A program made the position numbers and the translations under genes. From NCBI RefSeq assembly GCF_035084215.1, contig NC_090328.1, positions 5,952,001-6,016,000 on the forward strand: 64,000 nucleotides of DNA, written 5' to 3'. This DNA comes from Heptranchias perlo (lineage: Eukaryota). Numbering within the stretch: position 1 is the first letter of the stretch; every line of letters begins with the position of its first letter. The notes below the pieces were generated by a model. That model did not search any database. It was not told the origin of the DNA and worked only from the letters and a program-made list of their open reading frames with translations. Below are positions 6,024 through 47,665 of the stretch, in pieces.

Positions 6024-6240
6024 CTGGAACGAGCTGCCAGAGGCAGTAGTAGAGGCGGGTACAATTTTGTCTTTTAAAAAGCATTTGGACAGTTACATGG
6101 GTAAGATGGGTATGGAGGGATATGGGCCAAGTGCAGGCAATTGGGACTAGCTTAGTGGTATAAACTGGGCGACATGGACATGTTGGGCCGAAGGGCCTGT
6201 TTCCATGTTGTAACTTCTATGATTCTATGATTCTATGATT
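6024..6240 (+). mobile_element. CR1 LINE 3'-terminal fragment inside the satellite (copy 3)
   Basis: Same 217 bp and junctions; carries CTTAGTGG, as the long copy at 8.4 kb does. Confidence 0.95.
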
Positions 6241-7137
6241 AGACAGCTGACAAGTTAACAGCATTAGACAGCTGACAAGTTAACAATGGTAAAGAGCTGA
6301 CAAGCAAACAGTGTTAGACAGCTGACAAGTTAAAAGTGTTAAATAACTGACAAGTTAACAGTGTTAAATAGCTGACAAGTTAACAGTGTTAGACAGCTGA
6401 CAAGTTAACAGTGTTAAATAACGGACAAGCTAACAGTGTTAGACAGCTGACAAGTTAACAGTGTTAGACAGCTGACAAGTTAACAGCATTAGACAGCTGA
6501 CAAGTTAACAGTGGTAAAGAGCTGACAAGCAAACAGTGTTAGACAGCTGACAAGTTAACAGTGTTAGACAGCTGACAAGCTAACAGTGTTAGAGAGCTGA
6601 CAAGCTAACAGTGTTAAATAGCTGACAAGTTAACAGTGTTAAATAACTTACAAGCTAACAGTGTTAGACAGCTGACAAGTTAACAGTGTTAGACAGCTGA
6701 CAAGTTAACAGTGTTAAATAACGGACAAGCTAACAGTGTTAGACAGCTGACAAGTTAACAGTGTTAGACAGCTGACAAGTTAACAGCATTAGACAGCTGA
6801 CAAGTTAACAGTGTTAAATAGCTGACAAGTTAACAGTGTTCGACAGCTGACAAGTTAACAGTGTTAAAGAGCTGACAAGTTAACAGTGTTAAATAACTGA
6901 CAAGCTAACAGTGTTGGACAGCTGACAAGTTAACAGTGTTAAATAACTGACAAGCTAACAGTGTTAAATAACTGACAAGCTAACAGTGTTAGACAGCTGA
7001 CTAGTTAACAGCGATAGACAGCTGACAAGTTAACAGTGTTAAAGAACTGACAAGCTAACATTGTTAGACAGCTGACAAGTTAACAGTGTTAGACAGCTGA
7101 CTAGTTAACAGCGATAGACAGCTGACAAGTTAACAGT

Positions 7138-7354
7138 CTGGAACGAGCTGCCAGAGGCAGTAGTAGAGGCGGGTACAATTTTGTCTTTTAAAAAGCATTT
7201 GGACAGTTACATGGGTAAGATGGGTATGGAGGGATATGGGCCAAGTGCAGGCAATTGGGACTAGCTTCGTGGTATAAACTGGGCGACATGGACATGTTGG
7301 GCCGAAGGGCCTGTTTCCATGTTGTAACTTCTATGATTCTATGATTCTATGATT
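7138..7354 (+). mobile_element. CR1 LINE 3'-terminal fragment inside the satellite (copy 4)
   Basis: Same 217 bp and junctions. Confidence 0.95.
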
Positions 7355-8049
7355 AGACAGCTGACAAGTTAACAGCATTAGACAGCTGACAAGTTAACAG
7401 TGGTAAAGAGCTGACAAGCAAACAGTGTTAGACAGCTGACAAGTTAAAAGTGATAAATAACGGACAAGCTAACAGTGTTAGACAGCTGACAAGTTAACAG
7501 TGTTAGACAGCTGACAAGTTAACAGTGTTGGACAGCTGACAAGCTCACAGTGTTCGACAGCTGACAAGCTAACAGTGTTAAATAGCTGACAAGCTAACAG
7601 TGTTAAATAACTGACAAGCTAACAGTGTTAAATAGCTGACAAGCTAACATTGTTAAATAACTGACAAGCTAACAGTGTTAGACAGCTGACAAGTTAAAAG
7701 TGATAAATAACGGACAAGCTAACAGTGTTAGACAGCTGACAAGTTAACAGTGTTAGACAGCTGACAAGTTAACAGTGTTAGACAGCTGACAAGCTCACAG
7801 TGTTCGACAGCTGACAAGCTAACAGTGTTAAATAGCTGACAAGCTAACAGTGTTAAATAACTGACAAGCTAACAGTGTTAAATAGCTGACAAGCTAACAT
7901 TGTTAAATAACTGACAAGCTAACAGTGTTAGACAGCTGACAAGTTACAGTGTTAAAAAGCTGACAAGCTATATCTTCGTTCCAGCTGGGTCGATGGTTAG
8001 GTTTATGAATGTTTCCTGATTTTATTGATTGTTGCGTAGGTGGCCCTTT

Positions 8050-8199
8050 AATTCGTGACAGTCGAACCGCCGGCTAACCAATGGGAGCAAGTTGGCGATT
8101 TCGGGGTTTGACTGAGCATGTGCGCATTCACAAACCCACTCCATCGATTCGCCGGCGGTCAGAGAGGACGCCGTTGCAATGTGGCGTCCTCGGGTGAGT
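8050..8199 (+). promoter_or_regulatory. Candidate CpG-rich promoter / first exon
   Basis: CpG cluster, CCAAT (TAACCAATGGG), an NRF1-like GCATGTGCGCA and a consensus donor CGG|GTGAGT at 8193/8194. Confidence 0.35.
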
Positions 8200-13359: not shown

Positions 13360-13518
13360 GGGGGCAATTGCAATCAGACGGGATCGGTGCAATGCTGGTT
13401 TCACACCCCGCCCGATTTTACTCTCCAGTGAAGTCACTGGGTGGGGTGTAAAACGGACGTCCCCCTCCCCCCCCCCCAACACCGATCCCGCCCGACGGGT
13501 TAGGTTAAAATTGCCTCC
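13360..13518. mobile_element. Palindromic MITE (non-autonomous DNA transposon, possibly Harbinger-like)
   Basis: Termini GGGGGCAATT / AATTGCCTCC; nested inverted pairs CGGGATCGGTG/CACCGATCCCG and TTTCACACCCC/GGGGTGTAAAA; centre CCAGTGAAGTCACTGG. Confidence 0.7.
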
Positions 13519-14940: not shown

Positions 14941-15120
14941 AATGCATGACCCCACCTGAGAACTGAGTAACTAAAGTCCACCTGTGAATTCCTCAGGCAT
15001 TTTGAAACATTGGGGGAAAATTTTCTATTTGCTGCCGAGGCGTGAAGCTGGAGTTACTGATCAGTGGATTGTTACTGAAAACAACACATGTCACATTCCA
15101 TCGGTTTCAAATCGAAAATC

Positions 15121-18100
15121 GGGTGATTCCTATAATGGGGTGGATTGGAGGGGAGATTCCTATAATGGGATGGATTGGAGGGGAGATTCCTATAATGGGA
15201 TGGATTGGAGGGGAGATTCCTATAATGGGGTGGATTGGAGGGGAGATTCCTATAATGGGATGGATTGGTGGGGAGATTCCTATAATGGGATGGATTGGTG
15301 GGGAGATTCCTATAATGGGATGGATTGGTGGGGAGATTCCTATAATGGGATGGATTGGTGGGGAGATTCCCAAAATGGATGGATTGGAGGGGAGATTCCT
15401 ATAATGGGGTGGATTGGTGGGGAGATTCTATAATGGGATGGATTGGTGGGGAGATTCCTATAATGGATGGATTGGAGGGGAGATTCCTATAATGGGGTGG
15501 ATTGGTGGGGAGATTCTATAATGGGATGGATTGGCGGGGAGATTCCTATAATGGGATGGATTGGTGGGGAGATTCCGAAATGGGGTGGATTGGTGGGGAG
15601 ATTCTATAATGGGGTGGATTGGTGGGGAGCTTCCTATAATGGGATGGATTGGTGGGGAGATTCCTATAATGGGATGGATTGGTGGGGAGATTCCTATAAT
15701 GGGGTGGATTGGTGGGGAGATTCCTATAATGGGATGGATTGGTGGGGAGATTCCTATAATGGGATGGATTGGTGGGGAGATTCTATAATGGGGTGGATTG
15801 GTGGGGAGATTCTATAATGGGGTGGATTGGAGGGGAGATTCTATAATGGGGTGGATTGGTGGGGAGATTCTATAATGGGGTGGATTGGTGGGGAGATTCC
15901 TATAATGGGATGGATTGGCGGGGAGATTCCTATAATGGGATGGATTGGTGGGGAGATTCTATAATGGGGTGGATTGGAGGGGAGATTCTATAATGGGATG
16001 GATTGGCGGGGAGATTCTATAATGGGATGGATTGGTGGGGAGATTCTATAATGGGGTGGATTGGTGGGGAGATTCTATAATGGGGTGGATTGGTGGGGAG
16101 ATTCTATAATGGGATGGATTGGTGGGGAGATTCTATAATGGGGTGGATTGGTGGGGAGATTCTATAATGGGATGGATTGGCGGGGAGATTCTATAATGGG
16201 GTGGATTGGTGGGGAGATTCTATAATGGGATGGATTGGCGGGAAGATTCTATAATGGGGTGGATTGGTGGGGAGATTCTATAATGGGATGGATTGGCGGG
16301 AAGATTCTATAATGGGGTGGATTGGTGGGGAGATTCTATAATGGGATGGATTGGCGGGGAGATTCTATAATGGGGTGGATTGGTGGGGAGATTATATAAT
16401 GGGATGGATTGGCGGGAAGATTCTATAATGGGATGGATTGGAGGGGAGATTCTATAATGGGATGGATTGACGGGGAGATTCCTATAATGGGGTAGATTGG
16501 CGGGGAGATTCCAATAATGGGATGGATTGGTGGGGAGATTCTATAATGGGGTGGATTGGTGGGGAGATTCTATAATGGGGTGGATTGGTGGGGAGATTCT
16601 ATAATGGGGTGGATTGGTGGGGAGATTCTATAATGGGGTGGATTGGTGGGGAGATTCTATAATGGGATGGATTGGCGGGAAGATTCTATAATGGGATGGA
16701 TTGGTGGGGAGATTCTATAATGGGATGGATTGGCGGGAAGATTCTATAATGGGATGGATTGGAGGGGAGATTCTATAATGGGATGGATTGACGGGGAGAT
16801 TCCTATAATGGGGTAGATTGGCGGGGAGATTCCTATAATGGGGTAGATTGGCGGGGAGATTCTATAATGGGATGGATTGGCGGGGAGATTCCTATAATGG
16901 GGTAGATTGGCGGGGAGATTCCTATAATGGGATGGATTGGCGGGGAGATTCCTATAATGGGATGGATTGGCGGGGAGATTCTATAATGGGGTGGATTGGC
17001 GGGGAGATTCTATAATGGGATGGATTGGTGGGGAGATTCTATAATGGGATGGATTGGTGGGGAGATTCCTATAATGGGATGGATTGGTGGGGAGATTCTA
17101 TAATGGGGTGGATTGGTGGGGAGATTCCTATAATGGGATGGATTGGCGGGGAGATTCCTATAATGGGATGGATTGGCGGGGAGATTCTATAATGGGATGG
17201 ATTGGCGGGGAGATTCCTATAATGGGATGGATTGACGGGGAGATTCTATAATGGGATGGATTGGCGGGAAGATTCTATAATGGGATGGATTGGTGGGGAG
17301 ATTCTTTAATGGGATGGATTGGCGGGGAGATTCCTATAATGGGATGGATTGGCGGGGAGATTCTATAATGGGATGGATTGGCGGGGAGATTCTATAATGG
17401 GATGGATTGGCGGGGAGATTCTATAATGGGATGGATTGACGGGACGATTCTATAATGGGATGGATTGGCGGGGAGATTCTATAATGGGATGGATTGACGG
17501 GACGATTCTATAATGGGATGGATTGACGGGGAGATTCTATAATGGGATGGATTGACGGGACGATTCTATAATGGGATGGATTGGCGTGGAGATTCTATAA
17601 TGGGGTGGATTGGTGGGGAGATTCTATAATAGGGTGGATTGGCGGGGAGATTCTATAATGGGATGGATTGGTGGGGAGATTCTATAATGGGATGGATTGG
17701 TGGGGAGATTCTATAATAGGGTGGATTGGCGGGGAGATTTTATAATGGGATGGATTGACGGGGAGATTCTATAATAGGGTGGATTGGTGGGGAGATTCTA
17801 TAATGGGATGGATTGGCGGGGAGATTCTATAATGGGATGGATTGACAGGTGGATTCTATAATGGGATGGATTGGTGGGGAGATTCTATAATGGGATGGAT
17901 TGACGGGGAGATTCTATAATGGGGTGCATTGGTGGGGAGATTCTATAATGGGATGGATTGGTGGGGAGATTCCTATAATGGGATGGATTGAGGGGGAGAT
18001 TATATAATGGGATGGATTGGTGGGGAGATTCTATAATGGGATGGATTGACGGGGAGATTCTATAATGGGGTGATTGGTGGGGAGATTCTATAATGGGATG

Positions 18101-21100
18101 GATTGACGGGGAGATTCTATAATGGGATGGATTGGTGGGGAGATTCTATAATGGGATGGATTGACGGGGAGATTCTATAATGGGGTGGATTGGTGGGGAG
18201 ATTCTATCATAGGGTGGATTGGCGGGGAGATTCTATAATGGGATGGATTGGCGGGGAGATTCTATAATGGGATGGATTGACGGGGAGATTCTATAATGGG
18301 GTGGATTGGTGGGGAGATTCTATAATGGGATGGATTGACGGGGAGATTCTATAATGGGGTGGATTGTCGGGGAGATTCTATAATGGGATGGATTGGTGGG
18401 GAGATTCTATAATGGGATGGATTGACGGGGAGATTCTATAATGGGATGGATTGACGGGGAGATTCTATAATGGGATGGATTGACGGGGAGATTCTATAAT
18501 GGGATGGATTGGTGGGGAGATTCTATAATGGGATGGATTGACGGGGAGATTCTATAATGGGATGGATTGGTGGGGAGATTCTATAATGGGATGGATTGGT
18601 GGGGAGATTCTATAATGGGATGGATTGGTGGGGAGATTCTATAATAGGGTGGATTGGCGGGGAGATTCTATAATGGGATGGATTGGTGGGGAGATTCTAT
18701 AACGGGATGGATTGACGGGGAGATTCTATAATAGGGTGGATTGGTGGGGAGATTCTATAATGGGATGGATTGGCGGGGAGATTCTATAATGGGATGGATT
18801 GACAGGTAGATTCTATAATGGGATGGATTGGTGGGGAGATTCTATAATGGGATGGATTGACGGGGAGATTCTATAATGGGGTGCATTGGTGGGGAGATTC
18901 TATAATGGGATGGATTGGTGGGGAGATTCCTATAATGGGATGGATTGAGGGGGAGATTATATAATGGGATGGATTGGTGGGGAGATTCTATAATGGGATG
19001 GATTGACGGGGAGATTCTATAATGGGGTGATTGGTGGGGAGATTCTATAATGGGATGGATTGACGGGGAGATTCTATAATGGGGTGGATTGGTGGGGAGA
19101 TTCTATAATAGGGTGGATTGGCGGGGAGATTCTATAATGGGATGGATTGGTGGGGAGATTCTATAATGGGATGGATTGACGGGGAGATTCTATAATGGGG
19201 TGGATTGGTGGGGAGATTCTATCATAGGGTGGATTGGCGGGGAGATTCTATAATGGGATGGATTGGCGGGGAGATTCTATAATGGGATGGATTGACGGGG
19301 AGATTCTATAATGGGGTGGATTGGTGGGGAGATTCTATAATGGGATGGATTGACGGGGAGATTCTATAATGGGGTGGATTGTCGGGGAGATTCTATAATG
19401 GGATGGATTGGTGGGGAGATTCTATAATGGGATGGATTGACGGGGAGATTCTATAATGGGATGGATTGACGGGGAGATTCTATAATGGGATGGATTGACG
19501 GGGAGATTCTATAATGGGATGGATTGGTGGGGAGATTCTATAATGGGATGGATTGACGGGGAGATTCTATAATGGGATGGATTGGTGGGGAGATTCTATA
19601 ATGGGATGGATTGGTGGGGAGATTCTATAATGGGATGGATTGGTGGGGAGATTCTATAATAGGGTGGATTGGCGGGGAGATTCTATAATGGGATGGATTG
19701 GTGGGGAGATTCTATAACGGGATGGATTGACGGGGAGATTCTATAATAGGGTGGATTGACGGGGAGATTCTATAATGGGATGGATTGGTGGGGAGATTCT
19801 ATAATGGGATGGATTGGCGGGGAGATTCTATAATGGGATGGATTGGTGGGGAGATTCTATAATGGGATGGATTGGCGGGGAGATTCCTATAATGGGATGG
19901 ATTGACGGGGAGATTCTATAATGGGGTGGATTGGTGGGGAGATTCTATAATAGGGTGGATTGGCGGGGAGATTCCGATAATGGGGTGGATTGGTGGGGAG
20001 ATTCTATAATGGGATGGATTGGCAGGGAGATACCGATAATGGGATGGATTGACGGGGAGATTCTATAATGGGGTGGATTGGTGGGGAGATTCTATAATAG
20101 GGTGGATTGGCGGGGAGATTCCTATAATGGGGTGGATTGGTGGGGAGAATCTATAATGGGGTGGATTGGTGGGGAGATTCTATAATGGGATGGATTGGTG
20201 GGGAGATTCTATAATGGGATGGATTGGTGGGGAGATTCTATAATGGGATGGACTGGCGGGGAGATTCTATAATGGGATGGATTGGTGGGGAGATTCTATA
20301 ATGGGATGGATTGGTGGGGAGATTCTATAATGGGATGGATTGACGGGGAGATTCTATAATGGGGTGGATTGGTGGGGAGATTCTATAATAGGGTGGATTG
20401 TCGGGGAGATTCTATAATGGGGTGGATTGGTGGGGAGATTCTATAATAGGGTGGATTGGCGGGGAGATTCTATAATGGGGTGGATTGGTGGGGAGATTCT
20501 ATAATGGGATGGATTGGTGGGGAGATTCTATAATGGGATGGATTGGTGGGGAGATTCTATAATGGGATGGATTGACGGGGAGATTCTATAATGGGGTGGA
20601 TTGGTGGGGAGATTCTATAATAGGGTGGATTGGCGGGGAGATTCTATAATGGGATGGATTGGCGGGGAGATTCTATAATGGGATGGATTGGTGGGGAGAT
20701 TCTATAATGGGATGGATTGGTGGGGAGATTCTATAATGGGATGGATTGACGGGGAGATTCTATAATAGGGTGGATTGACGGGGAGATTCCTATAATGGGA
20801 TGGATTGACGGGGAGATTCTATAATGGGGTGGATTGGTGGGGAGATTCTATAATAGGGTGGATTGACGGGGAGATTCCTATATTGGGGTGGATTGGTGGG
20901 GAGATTCTTTCATGGGGTGGATTGGTGGGGAGATTCTATAATGGGATGGATTGGCGGGGAGAATCTATAATGGGGTGGATTGGTGGGGAGATTCTATAAT
21001 GGGATGGATTGGCGGGGAGAATCTATAATGGGGTGGATTGGTGGGGAGATTCCTATAATGGGATGGATTGGCGGGGAGATTCTATAATGGGGTGGATTGG

Positions 21101-24100
21101 TGGGGAGATTCTATAATGGGGTGGATTGGTGGGGAGATTCCTATAATGGGATGGATTGGCGGGGAGATTCTATAATGGGATGGATTGGTGGGGAGATTCT
21201 ATAATGGGATGGATTGGCGGGGAGATTATATAATGGGATGGATTGGTGGGGAGATTCTATAATGGGATGGATTGGTGGGGAGATTCTATAATGGGATTGA
21301 TTGGCGGGGAGATTCTATAATGGGGTGGATTGGCGGGGAGATTCTATAATGGGATGGATTGGCAGGGAGATTCTATAATGGGATGGATTGACGGGGAGAT
21401 TCTATAATGGGATGGATTGGCGGGGAGATTCCTATAATGGGGTGGATTGGCGGGGAGATTCTATAATGGGATGGATTGGCGGGGAGATTCTATAATGGGA
21501 TGGATTGGTGGGGAGATTCTATAATGGGATGGATTGGTGGGGAGATTCTATAATGGGATGGATTGACGGGGAGATTCTATAATGGGGTGGATTGGTGGGG
21601 AGATTCTCTCATGGGATGGATTGACGGGGAGATTCTATAATGGGGTGGATTGGTGGGGAGATTCTATAATGGGGTGGATTGGTGGGGAGATTCTATAATG
21701 GGATGGATTGGTGGGGAGATTCTATAATGGGATGGATTGTTGGGGAGATTCTATAATGGGATGGATTGGTGGGGAGATTCTATAATGGGATGGATTGGCG
21801 GGGAGATTCTATAATGGGATGGATTGGTGGGGAGATTCTATAATGGGATGGATTGGTGGGGAGATTCTATAATGGGATGGATTGACGGGGAGATTCTATA
21901 ATGGGGTGGATTGGTGGGGAGATTCTATAATAGGGTGGATTGGCGGGGAGATTCTATAATGGGGTGGATTGGTGGGGAGATTCTATAAAAGGTGGATTGG
22001 CGGGGAGATTCTATAATGGGGTGGATTGGTGGGGAGATTCTATAATGGGATGGATTGGTGGGGAGATTCTATAATGGGATGGATTGGTGGGGAGATTCTA
22101 TAATGGGATGGATTGACTGGGAGATTCTATAATGGGGTGGATTGGTGGGGAGATTCTATAATAGGGTGGATTGGCGGGGAGATTCTATAATGGGATGGAT
22201 TGGCGGGGAGATTCTATAATGGGATGGATTGGTGGGGAGATTCTATAATGGGATGGATTGACGGGGAGATTCTATAATGGGGTGGATTGGTGGGGAGATT
22301 CTATAATAGGGTGGATTGGCGGGGAGATTCTATAATGGGATGGATTGGTGGGGAGATTCTATAATGGGATGGATTGGTGGGGACATTCTATAATGGGATG
22401 GATTGACGGGGAGATTCTATAATAGGGTGGATTGGTGGGGAGATTCTATAATAGGGTGGATTGGCGGGGAGATTCCTATAATGGATGGATTGACGGGGAG
22501 ATTCCTATAATGGAATGGATTGACGGGGAGATTCTATAATGGGGTGGATTGGTGGGGAGATTCTATAATAGGGTGGATTGGCGGGGAGATTCCTATGATG
22601 GGGTGGATTGGTGGGGAGATTCTATAATGGGGTGGATTGGTGGGGAGATTCTATAATGGGGTGGATTGGCGGGGAGAATCTATAATGGGGTGGATTGGTG
22701 GGGAGATTCTATAATGGGATGGATTGGCGGGGAGAATCTATAATGGGGTGGATTGGTGGGGAGATTCCTATAATGGGATGGATTGGCGGGGAGATTCTAT
22801 AATGGGGTGGATTGGTGGGGAGATTCTATAATGGGGTGGATTGGTGGGGAGATTCCTATAATGGGATGGATTGGCGGGGAGATTCTATAATGGGATGGAT
22901 TGGCGGGGAGATTCTATAATGGGATGGATTGGTGGGGAGATTCTATAATGGGATGGATTGGCGGGGAGATTCTATAATGGGATGGATTGGTGGGGAGATT
23001 CTATAATGGGGTGGATTGGTGGGGAGATTCTATAATGGGATGGATTGGCGGGGAGATTCTATAATGGGGTGGATTGGTGGGGAGATTCTATAATGGGATG
23101 GATTGGCGGGGAGATTCTATAACGGGGTGGATTGGTGGGGAGATTCTATAATGGGATGGATTGGCGGGGAGATTCTATAATGGGGTGGATTGGTGGGGAG
23201 ATTCTATAATGGGGTGGATTGGTGGGGAGATTCGATAATGGGGTGGATTGGTTGGGAGATTCCATAATGGGATGGATTGGCGGGAAGATTCTATAATGGG
23301 GTGGATTGGTGGGGAGATTCTATAATGGGATGGATTGGCGGGGAGATTCTATAATGGGGTGGATTGGTGGGGAGATTCTATAATGGGATGGATTGGCGGG
23401 AAGATTCTATAATGGGATGGATTGGAGGGGAGATTCTATAATGGGATGGATTGACGGGGAGATTCCTATAATGGGGTAGATTGGCGGGGAGATTCCTATA
23501 ATGGGATGGATTGGCGGGGAGATTCCTATAATGGGGTAGATTGGCGGGGAGATTCTATAATGGGATGGATTGGCGGGGAGATTCCTATAATGGGGTAGAT
23601 TGGCGGGGAGATTCCTATAATGGGATGGATTGGCGGGGAGATTCCTATAATGGGATGGATTGGCGGGGAGATTCTATAATGGGGTGGATTGGCGGGGAGA
23701 TTCTATAATGGGATGGATTGGTGGGGAGATTCTATAATGGGATGGATTGGTGGGGAGATTCCTATAATGGGATGGATTGGTGGGGAGATTCTATAATGGG
23801 GTGGATTGGTGGGGAGATTCCTATAATGGGATGGATTGGCGGGGAGATTCCTATAATGGGATGGATTGGCGGGGAGATTCTATTATGGGATGGATTGGCG
23901 GGGAGATTCCTACAATGGGATGGATTGACGGGGAGATTCTATAATGGGATGGATTGGCGGGGAGATTCTATAATGGGATGGATTGGTGGGGAGATTCTTT
24001 AATGGGATGGATTGGCGGGGAGATTCCTATAATGGGATGGATTGGTGGGGAGATTCTATAATGGGATGGATTGGCGGGGAGATTCTATAATGGGATGGAT

Positions 24101-27100
24101 TGGCGGGGAGATTCTATAATGGGATGGATTGACGGGACGATTCTATAATGGGATGGATTGGCGGGGAGATTCTATAATGGGATGGATTGACGGGACGATT
24201 CTATAATGGGATGGATTGACGGGGAGATTCTATAATGGGATGGATTGACGGGACGATTCTATAATGGGATGGATTGGCGTGGAGATTCTATAATGGGGTG
24301 GATTGGTGGGGAGATTCTATAATAGGGTGGATTGGCGGGGAGATTCTATAATGGGATGGATTGGTGGGGAGATTCTATAATGGGATGGATTGGTGGGGAG
24401 ATTCTATAATAGGGTGGATTGGCGGGGAGATTTTATAATGGGATGGATTGACGGGGAGATTCTATAATAGGGTGGATTGACGGGGAGATTCTATAATGGG
24501 ATGGATTGGTGGGGAGATTCTATAATGGGATGGATTGGCGGGGAGATTCTATAATGGGATGGATTGACAGGTAGATTCTATAATGGGATGGATTGGTGGG
24601 GAGATTCTATAATGGGATGGATTGACGGGGAGATTCTATAATGGGGTGCATTGGTGGGGAGATTCTATAATGGGATGGATTGGTGGGGAGATTCCTATAA
24701 TGGGATGGATTGACGGGGAGATTCTATAATGGGATGGATTGGTGGGGAGATTCTATAATGGGATGGATTGACGGGGAGATTCTATAATGGGGTGGATTGG
24801 TGGGGAGATTCTATAATGGGATGGATTGACGGGGAGATTCTATAATGGGGTGGATTGGTGGGGAGATTCTATAATAGGGTGGATTGGCGGGGAGATTCTA
24901 TAATGGGATGGATTGGTGGGGAGATTCTATAATGGGATGGATTGACGGGGAGATTCTATAATGGGGAGGATTGGTGGGGAGATTCTATCATAGGGTGGAT
25001 TGGCGGGGAGATTCTATAATGGGATGGATTGGCGGGGAGATTCTATAATGGGATGGATTGACGGGGAGATTCTATAATGGGGTGGATTGGTGGGGAGATT
25101 CTATAATAGGGTGGATTGGTGGGGAGATTCTATAATGGGATGGATTGACAGGGAGATTCTATAATGGGGTGGATTGTCGGGGAGATTCTATAATGGGATG
25201 GATTGGTGGGGAGATTCTATAATGGGATGGATTGACGGGGAGATTCTATAATGGGATGGATTGACGGGGAGATTCTATAATGGGATGGATTGACGGGGAG
25301 ATTCTATAATGGGATGGATTGGTGGGGAGATTCTATAATGGGATGGATTGACGGGGAGATTCTATAATGGGATGGATTGGTGGGGAGATTCTATAATGGG
25401 ATGGATTGGTGGGGAGATTCTATAATGGGATGGATTGGTGGGGAGATTCTATAATAGGGTGGATTGGCGGGGAGATTCTATAATGGGATGGATTGGTGGG
25501 GAGATTCTATAACGGGATGGATTGACGGGGAGATTCTATAATAGGGTGGATTGACGGGGAGATTCTATAATGGGATGGATTGGTGGGGAGATTCTATAAT
25601 GGGATGGATTGGCGGGGAGATTCTATAATGGGATGGATTGGTGGGGAGATTCTATAATGGGATGGATTGACGGGGAGATTCTATAATGGGGTGGATTGGT
25701 GGGGAGATTCTATAATAGGGTGGATTGGCGGGGAGATTCCGATAATGGGGTGGATTGGTGGGGAGATTCTATAATGGGATGGATTGGCGGGGAGATACCG
25801 ATAATGGGATGGATTGACGGGGAGATTCTATAATGGGGTGGATTGGTGGGGAGATTCTTTTATAGGGTGGATTGGCGGGGAGATTCCTATAATGGGGTGG
25901 ATTGGTGGGGAGAATCTATAATGGGGTGGATTGGTGGGGAGATTCTATAATGGGATGGATTGGCGGGGAGATTCTATAATGGGATGGATTGATGGGGAGA
26001 TTCTATAATGGGATGGATTGGCGGGGAGGTTCTATAATGGGATGGATTGGTGGGGAGATTCTATAATGGGATGGACTGGCGGGGAGATTCTATAATGGGA
26101 TGGATTGGTGGGGAGATTCTATAATGGGATGGATTGGTGGGGAGATTCTATAATGGGATGGATTGACGGGGAGATTCTATAATGGGGTGGATTGGTGGGG
26201 AGATTCTATAATAGGGTGGATTGTCGGGGAGATTCTATAATGGGGTGGATTGGTGGGGAGATTCTATAATAGGGTGGATTGGCGGGGAGATTCTATAATG
26301 GGGTGGATTGGTGGGGAGATTCTATAATGGGATGGATTGGTGGGGAGATTCTATAATGGGATGGATTGGTGGGGAGATTCTATAATGGGATGGATTGACG
26401 GCGAGATTCTATAATGGGGTGGATTGGTGGGGAGATTCTATAATAGGGTGGATTGGCGGGGAGATTCTATAATGGGATGGATTGGCGGGGAGATTCTATA
26501 ATGGGATGGATTGGTGGGGAGATTCTATAATGGGATGGATTGGTGGGGAGATTCTATAATGGGATGGATTGACGGGGAGATTCTATAATGGGGTGGATTG
26601 GTGGGGAGATTCTATAATAGGGTGGATTGGCGGGGAGATTCTATAATGGGATGGATTGGTGGGGAGATTCTATAATGGGATGGATTGGTGGGGAGATTCT
26701 ATAATGGGATGGATTGACGGGGAGATTCTATAATAGGGTGGATTGACGGGGAGATTCCTATAATGGGATGGATTGACGGGGAGATTCTATAATGGGGTGG
26801 ATTGGTGGGGAGATTCTATAATAGGGTGGATTGACGGGGAGATTCCTATATTGGGGTGGATTGGTGGGGAGATTCTTTCATGGGGTGGATTGGTGGGGAG
26901 ATTCTATAATGGGATGGATTGGCGGGGAGAATCTATAATGGGGTGGATTGGTGGGGAGATTCTATAATGGGATGGATTGGCGGGGAGAATCTATAATGGG
27001 GTGGATTGGTGGGGAGATTCCTATAATGGGATGGATTGGCGGGGAGATTCTATAATGGGGTGGATTGGTGGGGAGATTCTATAATGGGGTGGATTGGTGG

Positions 27101-30100
27101 GGAGATTCCTATAATGGGATGGATTGGCGGGGAGATTCTATAATGGGATGGATTGGTGGGGAGATTCTATAATGGGATGGATTGGCGGGGAGATTCTATA
27201 ATGGGATGGATTGGTGGGGAGATTCTATAATGGGATGGATTGGCGGGGAGATTCTATAATGGGATTGATTGGTGGGGAGATTCTATAATGGGGTGGATTG
27301 GCGGGGAGATTCTATAATGGGATGGATTGGCAGGGAGATTCTATAATGGGATGGATTGACGGGGAGATTCTATAATGGGATGGATTGGCGGGGAGATTCC
27401 TATAATGGGGTGGATTGGCGGGGAGATTCTATAATGGGATGGATTGGCGGGGAGATTCTATAATGGGATGGATTGGTGGGGAGATTCTATAATGGGATGG
27501 ATTGGTGGGGAGATTCTATAATGGGATGGATTGACGGGGAGATTCTATAATGGGGTGGATTGGTGGGGAGATTCTTTCATGGGATGGATTGACGGGGAGA
27601 TTCTATAATGGGGTGGATTGGTGGGGAGATTCTATAATGGGGTGGATTGGTGGGGAGATTCTATAATGGGATGGATTGGTGGGGAGATTCTATAATGGGA
27701 TGGATTGGTGGGGAGATTCTATAATGGGATGGATTGGTGGGGAGATTCTATAATGGGATGGATTGGCGGGGAGATTCTATAATGGGATGGATTGGTGGGG
27801 AGATTCTATAATGGGATGGATTGGTGGGGAGATTCTATAATGGGATGGATTGACGGGGAGATTCTATAATGGGGTGGATTGGTGGGGAGATTCTATAATA
27901 GGGTGGATTGGCGGGGAGATTCTATAATGGGGTGGATTGGTGGGGAGATTCTATAAAAGGTGGATTGGCGGGGAGATTCTATAATGGGGTGGATTGGTGG
28001 GGAGATTCTATAATGGGATGGATTGGCGGGGAGATTCTATAATGGGATGGATTGGTGGGGAGATTCTATAATGGGATGGATTGACGGGGAGATTCTATAA
28101 TGGGGTGGATTGGTGGGGAGATTCTATAATAGGGTGGATTGGCGGGGAGATTCTATAATGGGATGGATTGGTGGGGAGATTCTATAATGGGATGGATTGG
28201 TGGGGACATTCTATAATGGGATGGATTGACGGGGAGATTCTATAATAGGGTGGATTGGTGGGGAGATTCTATAATAGGGTGGATTGGCGGGGAGATTCCT
28301 ATAATGGAATGGATTGACGGGGAGATTCTATAATGGGGTGGATTGGTGGGGAGATTCTATAATAGGGTGGATTGGCGGGGAGATTCCTATAATGGGGTGG
28401 ATTGGTGGGGAGATTCTATAATGGGGTGGATTGGTGGGGAGATTCTATAATGGGATGGATTGGCGGGGAGAATCTATAATGGGGTGGATTGGTGGGGAGA
28501 TTCTATAATGGGATGGATTGGCGGGGAGAATCTATAATGGGGTGGATTGGTGGGGAGATTCCTATAATGGGATGGATTGGCGGGGAGATTCTATAATGGG
28601 GTGGATTGGTGGGGAGATTCTATAATGGGGTGGATTGGTGGGGAGATTCCTATAATGGGATGGATTGGCGGGGAGATTCTATAATGGGATGGATTGGCGG
28701 GGAGATTCTATAATGGGATGGATTGGTGGGGAGATTCTATAATGGGATGGATTGGCGGGGAGATTCTATAATGGGATGGATTGGTGGGGAGATTCTATAA
28801 TGGGATGGATTGGCGGGGAGATTCCTATAATGGGGTGGATTGGCGGGGAGATTCTATAATGGGATGGATTGGCGGGGAGATTCTATAATGGGATGGATTG
28901 GTTGGGAAATTCTATAATGGGATGGATTGGTGGGGAGATTCTATAATGGGATGGATTGACGGGGAGATTCTATAATGGGGTGGATTGGTGGGGAGATTCT
29001 CTCATGGTATGGATTGACGGGGAGATTCTATAATGGGATGGATTGGTGGGGAGATTCTATAATGGGATGGATTGACGGGGAGATTCTATAATGGGATGGA
29101 TTGGTGGGGAGATTCCTATAATGGGATGGATTGGCGGGGAGATTCCTTTTATGGGATGGATTGACGGGGAGATTCTATAATGGGGTGGATTGACGGGGAG
29201 ATTCTATAATGGGATGGATTGGTGGGGAGATTCCTATAATGGGATGGATTGGTGGGGAGATTCCTATAATGGGATGGATTGGTGGGGAGATTCTATAATG
29301 GGATGGATTGACGGGGAGATTCTATAATGGGGTGGATTGGTGGGGAGATTCTATAATAGGGTGGATTGTCGGGGAGATTCTATAATGGGGTGGATTGGTG
29401 GGGAGATTCTATAATAGGGTGGATTGGCAGGGAGATTCTATAATGGGGTGGATTGGTGGGGAGATTCTATAATGGGATGGATTGGTGGGGAGATTCTATA
29501 ATGGGATGGATTGGTGGGGAGATTCTATAATGGGATGGATTGACGGGGAGATTCTATAATGGGGTGGATTGGTGGGGAGATTCTATAATAGGGTGGATTG
29601 GCGGGGAGATTCTATAATGGGATGGATTGGCGGGGAGATTCTATAATGGGATGGATTGGTGGGGAGATTCTATAATGGGATGGATTGGTGGGGAGATTCT
29701 ATAATGGGATGGATTGACGGGGAGATTCTATAATGGGGTGGATTGGTGGGGAGATTCTATAATAGGGTGGATTGGCGGGGAGATTCTATAATGGGATGGA
29801 TTGGTGGGGAGATTCTATAATGGGATGGATTGGTGGGGAGATTCTATAATGGGATGGATTGACGGGGAGATTCTATAATAGGGTGGATTGACGGGGAGAT
29901 TCCTATAATGGGATGGATTGACGGGGAGATTCTATAATGGGGTGGATTGGTGGGGAGATTCTATAATAGGGTGGATTGACGGGGAGATTCCTATATTGGG
30001 GTGGATTGGTGGGGAGATTCTTTCATGGGGTGGATTGGTGGGGAGATTCTATAATGGGATGGATTGGCGGGGAGAATCTATAATGGGGTGGATTGGTGGG

Positions 30101-33100
30101 GAGATTCTATAATGGGATGGATTGGCGGGGAGAATCTATAATGGGGTGGATTGGTGGGGAGATTCCTATAATGGGATGGATTGGCGGGGAGATTCTATAA
30201 TGGGGTGGATTGGTGGGGAGATTCTATAATGGGGTGGATTGGTGGGGAGATTCCTATAATGGGATGGATTGGCGGGGAGATTCTATAATGGGATGGATTG
30301 GTGGGGAGATTCTATAATGGGATGGATTGGCGGGGAGATTCTATAATGGGATGGATTGGTGGGGAGATTCTATAATGGGATGGATTGGCGGGGAGATTCT
30401 ATAATGGGATTGATTGGTGGGGAGATTCTATAATGGGGTGGATTGGCGGGGAGATTCTATAATGGGATGGATTGGCGGGGAGATTCTATAATGGGATGGA
30501 TTGACGGGGAGATTCTATAATGGGATGGATTGGCGGGGAGATTCCTATAATGGGGTGGATTGGCGGGGAGATTCTATCATGGGATGGATTGGCGGGGAGA
30601 TTCTATAATGGGATGGATTGGTGGGGAGATTCTATAATGGGATGGATTGGTGGGGAGATTCTATAATGGGATGGATTGACGGGGAGATTCTATAATGGGG
30701 TGGATTGGTGGGGAGATTCTCTCATGGGATGGATTGACGGGGAGATTCTATAATGGGGTGGATTGGTGGGGAGATTCTATAATGGGATGGATTGGTGGGG
30801 AGATTCTATAATGGGATGGATTGGTGGGGAGATTCTATAATGGGATGGATTGGTGGGGAGATTCTATAATGGGATGGATTGGCGGGGAGATTCTATAATG
30901 GGATGGATTGGTGGGGAGATTCTATAATGGGATGGATTGGTGGGGAGATTCTATAATGGGATGGATTGACGGGGAGATTCTATAATGGGGTGGATTGGTG
31001 GGGAGATTCTATAATAGGGTGGATTGGCGGGGAGATTCTATAATGGGGTGGATTGGTGGGGAGATTCTATAAAAGGTGGATTGGCGGGGAGATTCTATAA
31101 TGGGGTGGATTGGTCGGGAGATTCTATAATGGGATGGATTGGTGGGGAGATTCTATAATGGGATGGATTGGTGGGGAGATTCTATAATGGGATGGATTGA
31201 CTGGGAGATTCTATAATGGGGTGGATTGGTGGGGAGATTCTATAATAGGGTGGATTGGCGGGGAGATTCTATAATGGGATGGATTGGCGGGGAGATTCTA
31301 TAATGGGATGGATTGGTGGGGAGATTCTATAATGGGATGGATTGACGGGGAGATTCTATAATGGGGTGGATTGGTGGGGAGATTCTATAATAGGGTGGAT
31401 TGGCGGGGAGATTCTATAATGGGATGGATTGGTGGGGAGATTCTATAATGGGATGGATTGGTGGGGAGATTCTATAATGGGATGGATTGACGGGGAGATT
31501 CTATAATGGGATGGATTGGTGGGGAGATTCCTATAATGGGATGGATTGGCGGGGAGATTCCTTTTATGGGATGGATTGACGGGGAGATTCTATAATGGGG
31601 TGGATTGACGGGGAGATTCTATAATGGGATGGATTGGTGGGGAGATTCCTATAATGGGATGGATTGGTGGGGAGATTCCTATAATGGGATGGATTGGTGG
31701 GGAGATTCTATAATGGGATGGATTGACGGGGAGATTCTATAATGGGGTGGATTGGTGGGGAGATTCTATAATAGGGTGGATTGTCGGGGAGATTCTATAA
31801 TGGGGTGGATTGGTGGGGAGATTCTATAATAGGGTGGATTGGCAGGGAGATTCTATAATGGGGTGGATTGGTGGGGAGATTCTATAATGGGATGGATTGG
31901 TGGGGAGATTCTATAATGGGATGGATTGGTGGGGAGATTCTATAATGGGATGGATTGACGGGGAGATTCTATAATGGGGTGGATTGGTGGGGAGATTCTA
32001 TAATAGGGTGGATTGGCGGGGAGATTCTATAATGGGATGGATTGGCGGGGAGATTCTATAATGGGATGGATTGGTGGGGAGATTCTATAATGGGATGGAT
32101 TGGTGGGGAGATTCTATAATGGGATGGATTGACGGGGAGATTCTATAATGGGGTGGATTGGTGGGGAGATTCTATAATAGGGTGGATTGGCGGGGAGATT
32201 CTATAATGGGATGGATTGGTGGGGAGATTCTATAATGGGATGGATTGGTGGGGAGATTCTATAATGGGATGGATTGACGGGGAGATTCTATAATAGGGTG
32301 GATTGACGGGGAGATTCCTATAATGGGATGGATTGACGGGGAGATTCTATAATGGGGTGGATTGGTGGGGAGATTCTATAATAGGGTGGATTGACGGGGA
32401 GATTCCTATATTGGGGTGGATTGGTGGGGAGATTCTTTCATGGGGTGGATTGGTGGGGAGATTCTATAATGGGATGGATTGGCGGGGAGAATCTATAATG
32501 GGGTGGATTGGTGGGGAGATTCTATAATGGGATGGATTGGCGGGGAGAATCTATAATGGGGTGGATTGGTGGGGAGATTCCTATAATGGGATGGATTGGC
32601 GGGGAGATTCTATAATGGGGTGGATTGGTGGGGAGATTCTATAATGGGGTGGATTGGTGGGGAGATTCCTATAATGGGATGGATTGGCGGGGAGATTCTA
32701 TAATGGGATGGATTGGTGGGGAGATTCTATAATGGGATGGATTGGCGGGGAGATTCTATAATGGGATGGATTGGTGGGGAGATTCTATAATGGGATGGAT
32801 TGGCGGGGAGATTCTATAATGGGATTGATTGGTGGGGAGATTCTATAATGGGGTGGATTGGCGGGGAGATTCTATAATGGGATGGATTGGCGGGGAGATT
32901 CTATAATGGGATGGATTGACGGGGAGATTCTATAATGGGATGGATTGGCGGGGAGATTCCTATAATGGGGTGGATTGGCGGGGAGATTCTATCATGGGAT
33001 GGATTGGCGGGGAGATTCTATAATGGGATGGATTGGTGGGGAGATTCTATAATGGGATGGATTGGTGGGGAGATTCTATAATGGGATGGATTGACGGGGA

Positions 33101-35292
33101 GATTCTATAATGGGGTGGATTGGTGGGGAGATTCTCTCATGGGATGGATTGACGGGGAGATTCTATAATGGGGTGGATTGGTGGGGAGATTCTATAATGG
33201 GATGGATTGGTGGGGAGATTCTATAATGGGATGGATTGGTGGGGAGATTCTATAATGGGATGGATTGGTGGGGAGATTCTATAATGGGATGGATTGGCGG
33301 GGAGATTCTATAATGGGATGGATTGGTGGGGAGATTCTATAATGGGATGGATTGGTGGGGAGATTCTATAATGGGATGGATTGACGGGGAGATTCTATAA
33401 TGGGGTGGATTGGTGGGGAGATTCTATAATAGGGTGGATTGGCGGGGAGATTCTATAATGGGGTGGATTGGTGGGGAGATTCTATAAAAGGTGGATTGGC
33501 GGGGAGATTCTATAATGGGGTGGATTGGTCGGGAGATTCTATAATGGGATGGATTGGTGGGGAGATTCTATAATGGGATGGATTGGTGGGGAGATTCTAT
33601 AATGGGATGGATTGACTGGGAGATTCTATAATGGGGTGGATTGGTGGGGAGATTCTATAATAGGGTGGATTGGCGGGGAGATTCTATAATGGGATGGATT
33701 GGCGGGGAGATTCTATAATGGGATGGATTGGTGGGGAGATTCTATAATGGGATGGATTGACGGGGAGATTCTATAATGGGGTGGATTGGTGGGGAGATTC
33801 TATAATAGGGTGGATTGGCGGGGAGATTCTATAATGGGATGGATTGGTGGGGAGATTCTATAATGGGATGGATTGGTGGGGACATTCTATAATGGGATGG
33901 ATTGACGGGGAGATTCTATAATAGGGTGGATTGACGGGGAGATTCCTATAATGGGGGGGATTGGAGGGGAGATTCTATAATGGGGTGGATTGATGGGGAG
34001 ATTCTATAATGGGGGGGATTGGAGGGGAGATTCTATAATGGGGTGGATTGATGGGGAGATTCTATAATGGGATGGATTGGCGGGGAGAATCTATAATGGG
34101 GTGGATTGGTGGGGAGATTCTATAATGGGATGGATTGATGGGGAGATTCTATAATGGGGTGGATTGGTGGGGAGATTCTATAATGGGGTGGATTGTTGGA
34201 GAGATTCTATAATGGGATGGATTGGCGGGGAGAATCTATAATTGGGTGGATTGGTGGGGAGATTCTATAATGGGATGGATTGGCGGGGAGAATCTATAAT
34301 GGGGTGGATTGGTGGGGAGATTCCTATAATGGGATGGATTGGCGGGGAGATTCTATAATGGGGTGGATTGGTGGGGAGATTCTATAATGGGATGGATTGG
34401 TTGGGAAATTCTATAATGGGATGGATTGGTGGGGAGATTCTATAATGGGATGGATTGACGGGGAGATTCTATAATGGGATGGATTGGTGGGGAGATTCTC
34501 TCATGGGATGGATTGGTGGGGAGATTCTATAATGGGATGGATTGACGGGGAGATTCTATAATGGGATGGATTGACGGGGAGATTCTATAATGGGATGGAT
34601 TGGTGGGGAGATTCTCTCATGGGATGGATTGGTGGGGAGATTCTATAATGGGATGGATTGACGGGGAGATTCTATAATGGGATGGATTGGTGGGGAGATT
34701 CCTATAATGGGATGGATTGGCGGGGAGATTCCTTTTATGGGATGGATTGACGGGGAGATTCTATAATGGGGTGGATTGACGGGGAGATTCTATAATGGGA
34801 TGGATTGGTGGGGAGATTCCTATAATGGGATGGATTGACGGGGAGATTCTATAATGGGATGGATTGGTGGGGAGATTCCTATAATGGGATGGATTGGCGG
34901 GGAGATTCCTTTTATGGGATGGATTGACGGGGAGATTCTATAATGGGGTGGATTGACGGGGAGATTCTATAATGGGATGGATTGGTGGGGAGATTCCTAT
35001 AATGGGGTGGATTGACGGGGAGATTCTATAATGGGGTGGATTGGTGGGGAGATTCCTATAATGGGATGGATTGGTGGGGAGATTCCTATAATGGGATGGA
35101 TTGGTGGGGAGATTCCTATGATGGGATGGATTGACGGGGAGATTCCTATCATGGGGTGGATTGACGGGGAGATTCTATAATGGGGTGGATTGGAGGGGAG
35201 ATTCCTATAATGGGGTGGATTGGCGGGCAGATTCTATAATGGGGTGGATTGGCGGGGCGAGTTCTGTAATGGGGTCGATTGGCGGGGCGATT
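15121..35292. repeat. About 20-kb G-rich satellite, 29/30-bp unit GGGAGATTC(C)TATAATGGGRTGGATTGRYG, about 690 units, with kb-scale higher-order duplications
   Basis: Direct periodicity; an identical variant block recurs at 20805, 26773, 29918 and 32333. Confidence 0.98.
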
Positions 35293-35439
35293 TTTAATGC
35301 CAGCTTTATGCCCAGGCAGCAAGTCCAAAGTCTACCCCGTTGTGTCATCGTCAAGTCTGTAACCTCACCTCGTTCAGGGACCCGCTAATAACAGCGGCTA
35401 AAAAAAAGGACGGTGTCTCATCGGTTCACTCATCGGCCT

Positions 35440-35601
35440 GGCCGTTAAAGGGTTAAGGTGCCTGTCTGTGGGCGGAGTTTTAACACTGACTGCACGGCTG
35501 GGAAGGAAGCAAAAGGAAGCGGGTTTTCAGGATCAATCTCAGTGCCGAGCAGGATTCAAGCGACAGAAGAGCTCTGAACGCGGAGGGGGCTGAGGAGGAC
35601 A
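35440..35601 (+). promoter_or_regulatory. Probable TATA-less promoter / 5' UTR of the Siglec-15-like gene
   Basis: GC box GGGCGG near 35470 and clustered ETS cores GGAAGGAAGC..AAGGAAGC at 35501-35520, directly upstream of the ATG. Confidence 0.5.
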
Positions 35602-35650
35602 ATGCTGCCCATTTTGCTCTGTGCGATCGCCCAGGTCGTCTCTGCTGCAG
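35602..35650 (+). CDS. Siglec-15-like receptor exon 1, signal peptide MLPILLCAIAQVVSAA
   Basis: ATG with A at -3, a hydrophobic 16-aa leader and a phase-1 donor CAG|GTGCGT, as is typical of IgSF leader exons. Linkage to downstream exons crosses an N gap. Confidence 0.72.
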
Positions 35651-36124
35651 GTGCGTATTTCACAGCCTGAAGCAGCAGCAATTAGTCTCTTTCCCGTTTG
35701 CTGCATCGCGCGTTTTAAATCTGTCGGAAATGGCCAGGGATTGAGACCTCTTGCTCCAGATTATTGGTAAAAGTCTTCGCGTGTTAATGTTAAACGTGTT
35801 CGAGTGCCCGCGACACAGCTTCTACCTTCAGTTAACTCACCCCTGGTGGCATCTGACTTCAAGGGTGGATAGGCATCTCGTTCCTCCTGATGAATTCTTT
35901 CACCGTACCTGAGAGAAAGTAAAGTTCAATATTAAGTTTCGGCCGCTCTTTGTCCTCCGATTGTCCGATGACGACACTTCGGTTTAATATCAAACCAAAC
36001 AATATAGTGCTGTGGGCCAGTTAATTATTGTACTGGCCCAATGTTTCACTCAAGCTTCTCCAGTGAGTAGCTGATCCATACAGTCTAGGATGGTCACAGA
36101 ACCGATCCCCGATCTGTGATGTTG

Positions 36125-37383: not shown

Positions 37384-37579
37384 NNNNNNNNNNNNNNNNN
37401 NNNNNNNNNNNNNNNNNNNNNNNNNNNNNNNNNNNNNNNNNNNNNNNNNNNNNNNNNNNNNNNNNNNNNNNNNNNNNNNNNNNNNNNNNNNNNNNNNNNN
37501 NNNNNNNNNNNNNNNNNNNNNNNNNNNNNNNNNNNNNNNNNNNNNNNNNNNNNNNNNNNNNNNNNNNNNNNNNNNNNNN
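37384..37579. other. Assembly gap (N run)
   Basis: Run of N bases. Confidence 0.99.
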
Positions 37580-42536: not shown

Positions 42537-42945
42537 CTGCAGCGGTTCAAGAAGGTGGCTCACCACCACCTTCTCAAGGGCAATTAGGGATGGGCAATAA
42601 ATGCCGGCCTCGCCAGCGAAGCCACATCCCACGAACGAATAAAAAAAAAATTCTCAGGATGTGGGCGTCGCTGGCGAGGCCAGCTTTTATTGCCCGTCCC
42701 TAATTGCCCTTGAGAAGGTGGTGGTGAGCCGCCTTCTTGAACCGCTGCAGTCCGTGTGGTGAAGGTTCTCCCACAGTGCTGTTAGGAAGGGAGTTCCAGG
42801 ATTTTGACCCAGCGATGATGAAGGAACGGTGATATATTTCCAAGTCGGGTTGGTGTGTGACTTGGAGGTGGTGTTGTTCCCATGCACCTGCTGCTCTTGT
42901 CCTTCTAGGTGGCGGAGGTCGTGGGTTTGGGAGGTGCTGTCGAAG
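42537..42945. mobile_element. Two tail-to-tail 'HHHLLKGN' LINE 3' fragments (+ 42537-42650; - 42655-42945)
   Basis: Inverted arms of about 94 bp at 42537-42630 and 42657-42750. Confidence 0.88.
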
Positions 42946-43065
42946 AAGCCTGTCACTGCAGTGCATCCTGTTTCAGAGCCTACACCACATGAAGCTTTAA
43001 TGGGAGGAGTTGTACGGCCTTTTCTCATTCTGTGCTTTCCTGTGATACGTTGTTATGCCTCAAAA

Positions 43066-43465
43066 GTGTCCGTGAGAACGGCTGGACCATGGAGACCCCG
43101 GATAGGGTGACGGGTAGAGAAGGGAAGTCTGCCGTTCTGTTCTGCAAGTTCACTCACCCTTACCCTGGATATAAAGGCAACATCACCGTCATGTAGATGA
43201 GAAACCTGGAAAGATGTGGCACTTTTTAATTACACAAATTATCGATCACTAAACTGGCAGAGCAGTGGGTTTGAGAATCTGATCCACCAGAATGTAGACG
43301 AGCGCTACAGACTGATGGGGAACCCGAGGGAGAACGATGCTTCCATAATGATCCAACATCTGACTCTACGCGATAACGAACGGCAATTTATTTGCCTTGT
43401 GGATCTCCAGGACTATACGAATGAAACCTCCCAAAGCTTGTTTCAAACAATTCTTGTGGTGGCAG
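43066..43465 (+). pseudogene. Disabled Siglec-15-like V-set exon (pseudo-exon)
   Basis: Reads WTMETPDRVTGREGKSAVLFCKFTHPYPGYKGNITVM* (TAG at 43194-43196 in place of the conserved Trp), then a frameshift, then WKDVALFN...RYRLMGNPRENDASIMIQHLTLRD..FICLVD...LVVA. The phase-1 donor CAG|GTGAGG is intact, but there is no in-phase AG acceptor. Confidence 0.85.
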
Positions 43466-43485
43466 GTGAGGTGGATTATTGGGTC

Positions 43486-44020
43486 ATAGAATCATGCCAC
43501 ACAGGAGGAGGCCATTCGGCCCATCGTGCCTGGGCCGGCTCTTTGAAAGAGCTATCCAATTAGTCCCATTCCCCCTGCTCTTTCCCCGTAGCCCTGCAAT
43601 TTTTCCCTTTAAAGTATTTATCCAATCCCCTTTTGAAAGTTATTATTGAATCTGCTTCCACCGCCCTTTCAGGCAGCGCATTCCAGATCATAACAGCTCA
43701 TCTTTGGTTCTTTTGCCAATCACCTTCAATCTGTGTCCTCTGGTTATTGACCCTCTGCCACTGGAAACAGTTTCTCCTTATTTACCCTATCAAAACCCTT
43801 CATCATTCTAAACACCTCTATTATGGGGATCGAGCAGGAAAGTCGAGTTGAGTTTGAAGATCAGCCATGATCTTATTGAATGGCGGAGCAGGCTCGAGGG
43901 GCTGTATGGCCTACTCCTGCTCCTATTTCTTATGTTCTTATGTTCTTATTAAATCTTCCCTTAACCGTCTCTGCTCTACGGAAAACAACCCCAGCTTCTC
44001 CAGTCTTTTCACGTAACTGT
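43486..44020 (-). mobile_element. CR1 fragment containing a nested + strand CR1 3' end (about 43823-43950)
   Basis: The host resumes after an insert ending (TTCTTATG)n; TATTA occurs at both junctions. Confidence 0.85.
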
Positions 44021-44126
44021 TTCTATTACTCAAGTGCTGTGTTGTGAGGCGATTGCTTAGAAAAGATGTCCCTCTTGTCCCTCTGCCAATTTTTATCCCC
44101 TCCAAACTAATCTAAAGTAAAGCTAA

Positions 44127-44585
44127 GCAGTGGCTCAGTGGATAGCACTCTTGCCTCTGATTCAGAATGGTCGTGGGTTCAACTCCCACTCCAGAGACTT
44201 GAGCACATAATCCAGGCTGACCCTCCCAGTGCAGTACTTGAGGGAGTGCTGCACTGTCGGAGGTGCTGTCTTTTGGATGAGACATTAAACCGAGGCCGCG
44301 TCTGCCCTGGATGTAAAAGATCCCACGGCCACTGTTCGAAGAAGAGCAGGAGAGTTCTCCCTGGTGTCCTGGACAATATTTATCCCTCAACCAACATCAC
44401 TAAAAACAGATGATCTGCTCATTATCACATTGCTGTTTGTGGGACCTTGCTGTGCGCAAATTGGCTGCCCCGTTTCCCACATTACAACAGTGACTGCACT
44501 TCAAAAGTACTTCATTGGCTGTAAAGCGCTTTGGGACATCCTGAGGTTGTGAAAGACGCTGAATAAATATAAGTTCTTCCTTTCT
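44127..44585 (+). mobile_element. Full-length DeuSINE (SacSINE1-like)
   Basis: tRNA-like head (TGGCTCAGTGG A box, GGTTCAACTCCC B box), central Deu-like domain and an L2-like 3' tail. Confidence 0.85.
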
Positions 44586-44594
44586 TTTTATTTG

Positions 44595-47638: not shown

Positions 47639-47665
47639 TATCGACGTCTTTCTTTCTTCCCCAAG

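Follow-up and report, generated by a model that had tools for sequence, protein, structure and literature searches.

The stretch analysed here, called the window, comprises 64,000 nucleotides of the forward strand of contig NC_090328.1 (positions 5,952,001 to 6,016,000; assembly GCF_035084215.1) of the shark Heptranchias perlo, and all positions below are counted from its first letter. Within it lies a satellite of about 20 kb, made of units of 29 bp and enclosed by two inverted arms. Most probably, this whole locus descends from a single old palindromic miniature transposable element with inverted repeats (MITE) whose right inner segment became the satellite. The parts of the locus are the following:

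15009..15011 (+): candidate left target-site duplication ATT; weak, since it requires the G at 15012 to be an extra terminal G
15013..15055 (+): left terminal inverted repeat, mirroring 35296-35338 (31/43 by hand count, within the 35/50 match)
15053..15092 (-): left inner segment, putative relic homologue of the ancestral unit (mirror match over 15053-15082, extended to 15092 by symmetry)
15093..15120 (no strand): non-repeated centre, with a small palindrome at 15101-15115 and an adjoining 11-mer (15115-15125) common to a small MITE nearby
15121..35299 (+): satellite array, period 29, 692.6 copies, split into 692 units of 28-30 bp
29024..33875 (+): block duplicated exactly and in tandem, 84 identical units at lag 83, the second copy starting at 31439 and the end being approximate
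35200..35295 (+): degenerate terminal units plus a partial unit, merging into the right arm
35296..35338 (-): right terminal inverted repeat, where a dispersed family ends
35339..35341 (+): candidate right target-site duplication GTT; weak, matching the left ATT at 2/3

The inverted arms and the array between them

It was in the first-pass annotation of this DNA where the inverted match between 15013-15062 and the reverse complement of 35289-35338 was claimed, and we reproduced it without gaps at 35 of 50 positions. In dinucleotide-preserving shuffles the best 50-mer reached at most 30 with 220-bp flanks (n = 500) and at most 31 with 500-bp flanks (n = 500), and the local-alignment score of the real arms, 41, was attained by 0/500 shuffles at each flank size; the worry that shuffled flanks could do equally well is therefore not borne out, and the claimed merging of the right arm into the last degenerate units is also seen in the sequence. 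A harsher null was taken from real sequence: of 1481 random pairings of 220-bp window pieces, compared in inverted orientation, 15 came to 35/50 or better, probably through dispersed copies of short and long interspersed nuclear elements. We suggest keeping in mind, therefore, that the arm match by itself signals shared repeat ancestry, and that the enclosure of the array must rest on position. Over 43 bp the arms are 72% alike to each other; the left one is separated from the array by 58 non-repeated bases (15063-15120), the right one is continuous with the last units, and no further copy of either arm occurs within the window.

The array itself consists of 584 units of 29 bp, 102 of 30 bp and 6 of 28 bp, falling into 88 variants with a mean of 1.45 differences from the 29-bp consensus (685 of the 692 units, the 7 not reducible to 29 bp being excluded from the column table). 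A regular higher-order period was looked for and rejected, since the identity between units rises to no more than 0.22 at any lag (the maximum being at lag 83), where 0.097 would be expected, and the duplications are thus irregular blocks. There are 22 identical runs of at least 10 units, the longest of 84, against a longest run of 6 in 30 shuffles of the unit order, and this indicates later growth by unequal exchange; the 84-unit duplicate (~2.4 kb) in particular could be a recent unequal exchange or an assembly duplication. Units of 30 bp are enriched at the edges, where they make up 20 among the first 50 units and 13 among the last 42, compared with 1-13 per 50 in the interior, and the units ending in GGGC or GGGCA are the last three, a pattern consistent with edges escaping homogenisation. 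With arms 72% alike and units about 95% alike, the insertion would be old and the turnover of the array far younger.

A dispersed family that ends at the right arm

The right arm was compared with read-derived contigs from four sequencing runs, aligned to 35250-35480 at 80% likeness, so that all contig counts are a lower bound. The four runs gave 64, 68, 69 and 69 aligned contigs, one per run being the locus itself and 63-68 being others, in agreement with the dispersed family that had been predicted for this arm. The locus contig spans 35250-35480 with 0 differences in 4/4 runs and thereby confirms the right junction; this confirmation covers the right junction, and the array length is taken as assembled. 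Beyond the locus contig, cover is limited to about 35282-35353 with a peak at 35298-35337, and in run X1 the depth rises from 13.6 to ~1,900 only across ~35296-35338, a summed depth that is not a copy number. Exactly at 35338, 21, 23, 23 and 23 contigs per run depart (flank agreement 0.40), and 5 more per run depart at 35337 (flank agreement 0.53). From this pile-up on the arm, and from exits into unrelated flanks that fall precisely at 35338, we conclude that the right arm forms the genuine end of a dispersed family. In each run, 51 to 53 contigs stay below 90% likeness, which suits a family of some age, and the non-locus pieces listed (28 of 270 contigs aligned) are 43-50 bp long, within contigs of 534-3,580 bp. 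Public microbial collections, scanned by pattern, returned chance matches only (1 viral contig in one, 0 in another and 53 metagenome loci in a third), the 53 loci all representing a single stretch that comes with 8 variants of its flanks and shows no likeness past the pattern.

Inward of the arm, the loose ends of the contigs show how the family continues. Among the loose-end rows listed, those before 35296, 35298, 35299, 35301 and 35305 (3-16 contigs each, agreement 0.57-0.79) represent, by hand count, one and the same segment in one register, namely a TTCTATAA-like motif, a G-rich stretch, GATC and then the arm; the TTC of a TTCT(A/T)(A/T)AA-like motif stands in identical register in all five (C at 35274; hand count). 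At the locus, 35281-35291 agrees with this inner segment in register at 8/11 positions (hand count).

The family motif used for testing was the 9-contig row before 35299. Its likeness to the last satellite units was equalled by 11/3000 shuffles and that to mid-array units by 55/3000, while the two other arrays of the window, taken as controls, gave 2440/3000 and 1339/3000, neither being significant. A second loose-end row (4 contigs) has 12 exact letters in common with the satellite consensus by hand count, and the CpG form ATAACGGG of a third row is present in 4/692 units. On the left side, in the mirror register fixed by the termini, 15053-15082 matches the family motif at 18/30, a value reached by 12/200,000 shuffles, with 8/12 mismatches being transitions. 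Beyond its first 50 bp, the left end thus runs on as a family arm for a good distance and, judging from these comparisons of sequence, appears to hold a single copy, inverted and decayed, of the stretch from which the satellite arose.

Origin of the satellite unit

The sequence of events that would best account for these observations is as follows. A non-autonomous palindromic MITE of ~185 bp, belonging to a dispersed family, would have inserted at the locus long ago; its right end can be placed in the family that ends at 35338, and its left end in the same family in mirror register. The satellite unit would then be a homologue of the right arm's inner segment (~30 bp), as the shuffle statistics moderately suggest. 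Slippage during replication, or else repair, acting at short internal direct repeats may first have duplicated this inner segment, the candidates for these repeats being two GG(C/T)RG and two ATC/ATT motifs, and such an origin is in line with the microhomology model set out for miDNA4 in the relevant part of PMC12628747. Subsequently, unequal exchange would have grown and homogenised the array by copying blocks of 10 to 84 units, a block pattern that is visible today. The ends of the element and the edge units would have decayed outside this homogenisation, and the left arm would retain the single inverted relic of the seed. The first-pass annotation had pictured a ~30-bp internal piece of a ~200-bp transposon expanded about 700-fold; this picture is supported in its main predictions, its sizes hold up well (166-195 bp and 692 units), and its source can be refined, the piece apparently lying in the inner part of one palindrome arm and not in a central cargo.

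As for anatomy, the collapsed element would by symmetry measure about 185 bp, with an arm of ~80 bp, a centre of ~25 bp and a second arm of ~80 bp; four versions, depending on the cut, give 166-195 bp, which is too short for a transposase. The left arm extends over ~15013-15092, the centre over ~15093-15120, and the right arm begins at 35281 or 35296 and ends at 35338. From the left half through the centre into unit 1 the sequence runs on without a break, and no second terminus interrupts it. The element termini start with GGGG, and the consensus just outside the family terminus starts with AAT, or with T and then ATT (agreement 0.40-0.53 over 30 letters). This would fit an ANT target as in Pangu or an A|AT|T target as in ISL2EU, and we treat it as a lead only, because of the low flank agreement and the lack of a transposase. 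The element is almost certainly immobile today, and no host function is indicated for it or for the array.

Several observations weigh against the derivation from a single MITE. All four sequencing runs come from one sample, possibly the source of the window itself, and a search for runs yielded none from a further individual or species. The other family copies are visible only 30 letters inward of the arm, from which we infer, rather than see, copies carrying a single unit. No contig joining both arms was reported (no joints and 0 two-place fits), at an 80% threshold that is insensitive to a decayed copy, though the mirror match at the left end speaks indirectly for paired ends. The motif is absent from the loose-end row before 35300 (4 contigs, agreement 0.49), its likeness to the first satellite units is not significant (353/3000 shuffles), and against the right end in fixed register it scores only 13/30. 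A strict 21-letter family-like motif had 0 matches in the window at 3 mismatches. A free window scan with the family motif found 3 other places at 18/30, and the left-end match thus rests on its predicted register. The left inner segment compared directly with the satellite unit is not significant (p 0.44-0.70), being too decayed for a direct match. Finally, in strict register there is no clean target-site duplication at the flanks of the element.

This last point also speaks for the most likely of the other explanations, in which two copies of the family lying near each other contributed one end each, either through fusion into a hybrid or through a deletion that brought the ends together, and the array grew at their junction. 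The mere 72% likeness of the arms over 43 bp would suit such an origin, as would the commonness of the family and the ~1% of random window pieces that share an inverted repeat at this level (15/1481), and a stem-loop excision route has been proposed for Xstir of Xenopus in the part of PMC12628747 that deals with it. The parts, however, follow one another in the order and at the spacing of one palindromic element, no terminus lies inside it, and ATT/GTT may be a decayed duplication, so we regard the two-copy origin as unlikely.

Still less probable, in our estimation, is that an unrelated, pre-existing satellite was inserted in or captured by a MITE and that the likeness of unit and interior is a coincidence. 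That likeness is indeed moderate, as the first units do not reach significance (353/3000) and neither does the left inner segment when set against the unit, and the capture of a pre-existing repeat is a model proposed for miDNA4 in the corresponding part of PMC12628747. Against it, the unit occupies the very place expected for the inner segment and resembles that segment (11/3000 and 55/3000), one row has the 12-letter exact match, and the control arrays are without likeness. That the arms match by chance, or that the 20-kb array is largely an assembly artefact, is hardly credible: a duplication in the assembly might account for the exact tandem duplicate of 84 units (~2.4 kb), and read-contig support is limited to the right junction, yet chance is excluded by the shuffles together with the family terminus at 35338, the right junction stands on a single contig with 0 differences in 4/4 runs, and 88 variants with many imperfect blocks are unlike a collapsed or looped assembly.

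The single MITE with in-place amplification thus remains our preferred account, and it fits within a group of known systems. Satellites born inside MITEs or foldback elements have already been described under the names miDNA4, Xstir, Tetris and DTC84 (PMC12628747, PMC9659126, PMC12054243, PMC4079207, PMC3879986), and the comparisons that follow draw on the portions of these papers that concern them. The miDNA4 MITE of Xenopus tropicalis, also a vertebrate, has the same plan of an inverted end, (repeat)n and an inverted end (PMC12628747, PMC9659126, PMC12054243), with short internal direct repeats proposed as seeds and a path to classical satellite arrays also proposed (PMC12628747). It belongs to Tc1/mariner and measures 300-600 bp, with a single repeat motif in 61%, and the proposal is that long miDNA4 arrays lose the ends, whereas here 692 units (20 kb) stand between both ends, the unit apparently comes from the arm itself, the termini are GGGG and no TA duplication is seen. 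In Xstir/Xmix of Xenopus laevis the tandem repeat likewise comes from the MITE's own interior, in a composite of MITE plus array (PMC12628747, PMC9659126), but the route proposed for Xstir needs two nearby elements, and here a single element better explains the order of the parts.

In Drosophila virilis, the Tetris foldback element and its TIR-220 satellite also have repeats from a part of the inverted arm that are amplified within the element (PMC4079207). Its units of 220 bp are a standing part of the terminal inverted repeats, its arrays reach at most 66 copies and the element is reportedly disrupted by the amplification (PMC4079207), unlike the shark locus, where the left arm has one copy of a 29-bp unit and expansion is confined to the right arm. 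The pearl-like MITE DTC84 of Donax trunculus carries core tandem repeats in a cassette flanked by inverted repeats, but with at most 5 repeats plus a microsatellite and an AA duplication (PMC3879986), features that the shark locus does not show. The PHIS superfamily, with Pangu (ANT) and ISL2EU (A|AT|T), has termini starting with GG (PMC4482050), and the flank of AAT or T-ATT would fit its ANT-type target; in contrast to PHIS, no transposase was found here, none having been sought genome-wide, and the duplication of the shark copy is 2/3 at best. As for shark satellites, PMC11406177 treats them and has 0 occurrences of MITE in its accessible part. Our literature search by title and start of abstract, with subscription papers, Repbase/Dfam and supplements outside its scope, found no MITE-born shark satellite and no comparably long array with both element ends; the MITE family of the arms may already be catalogued in repeat databases. 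In summary, the route of amplification is a known one, and it is the size of the array and the survival of both ends that stand out.

Setting in the window and meaning for satellite biology

Three long arrays occur in the window, with periods of 25, 29 and 43 bp, and besides the 29-bp array treated above they are accompanied by several palindromic or inverted elements:

1-7967: 25-bp array, 316 copies, truncated by the window start
8066-8159: short CpG-rich inverted repeat with 19-nt arms (84%), ~100 bp past the end of the 25-bp array
13360..13518 (no strand): small palindromic MITE-like element, separate and at most a distant relative
42537-42750: inverted arms of 87 nt, 94% complementary, with 40 nt spacing, seemingly a common interspersed repeat present twice in opposite orientation
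53838-53997: second MITE-like palindrome with 58-nt arms, 71% complementary, and GGC-type ends
57660-61357: 43-bp array, 86 copies

The flanks of the 43-bp array give an inverted match of 24/50 at best, and this array is thus without inverted arms, so that enclosure is not a general feature of arrays in the window. The small MITE at 13360-13518 had been thought to resemble the arms of the satellite, and this is true in part: it shares the GGGG start and one 11-mer, found at 13409-13419 (-) and 15115-15125 (+), for which the window has only these 2 matches against 0.05 expected with a pattern chosen post hoc. Its alignment with the left half gives a shuffle p of 0.017-0.033 with many gaps, while its arms are not alignable with the satellite arms (p 0.26-0.45 against the right one). 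The palindrome at 53838-53997 was also considered as a relative of either satellite arm and ruled out by alignment against shuffles (p 0.53-0.95).

To the right of the array, a CpG-rich, non-repeated region at 35420-35660, with a GGGCGG box ~130 bp outside the right arm, is from its sequence a candidate promoter or first exon, and an assembly gap (N run) lies at 37384-37579, following a purine-rich 95-bp repeat and 2 kb from the satellite array. The neighbouring gene is Siglec-like (43030-48045, +), with immunoglobulin (Ig) V-set and I-set exons and a hydrophobic segment, 7.7 kb beyond the satellite feature. Its Ig V-set exon at 45612-45968 matches Pfam V-set with an E of 5.4e-16 and has 100% identity to a Heptranchias perlo protein named sialic acid-binding Ig-like lectin 15 by NCBI, all 8/8 matches of a protein search with this exon being sharks. 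The matched coding exons begin near 43030, and the array thus lies outside them. In the first V exon (~43030-43470) the alignment to relatives is split in two (to 43190 and from ~43201), and the database product of the locus (P0003, 286 aa) begins only at 43348; given this split and this late start, the Siglec-like copy may have a broken first domain. Rfam had 0 matches in the window.

Long arrays lose their context, and this is why the origin of a satellite is usually deduced from likeness alone. In this locus the context survives, namely both ends, the centre, the seed as an inverted relic and the parent family in dispersed copies, and therefore the ancestral unit can be compared directly with the homogenised one. 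The locus also means that growth of about 100-fold in place (from about 185 bp to 20 kb) can occur, and it appears to add sharks to the lineages with MITE-born satellites, the general principle being unchanged by the shark case. A bolder proposal, which we put forward as tentative and rather doubtful, is that the whole history of a satellite is readable at this one locus and that palindromic, GGGG-ended MITEs are a regular nursery of shark satellites, the window by itself containing three arrays. If this were true, cartilaginous fish would offer a graded series from 1 to about 700 units, and such a series would test both the passage from seed duplication to satellite and the need to lose the ends that the miDNA4 model holds.

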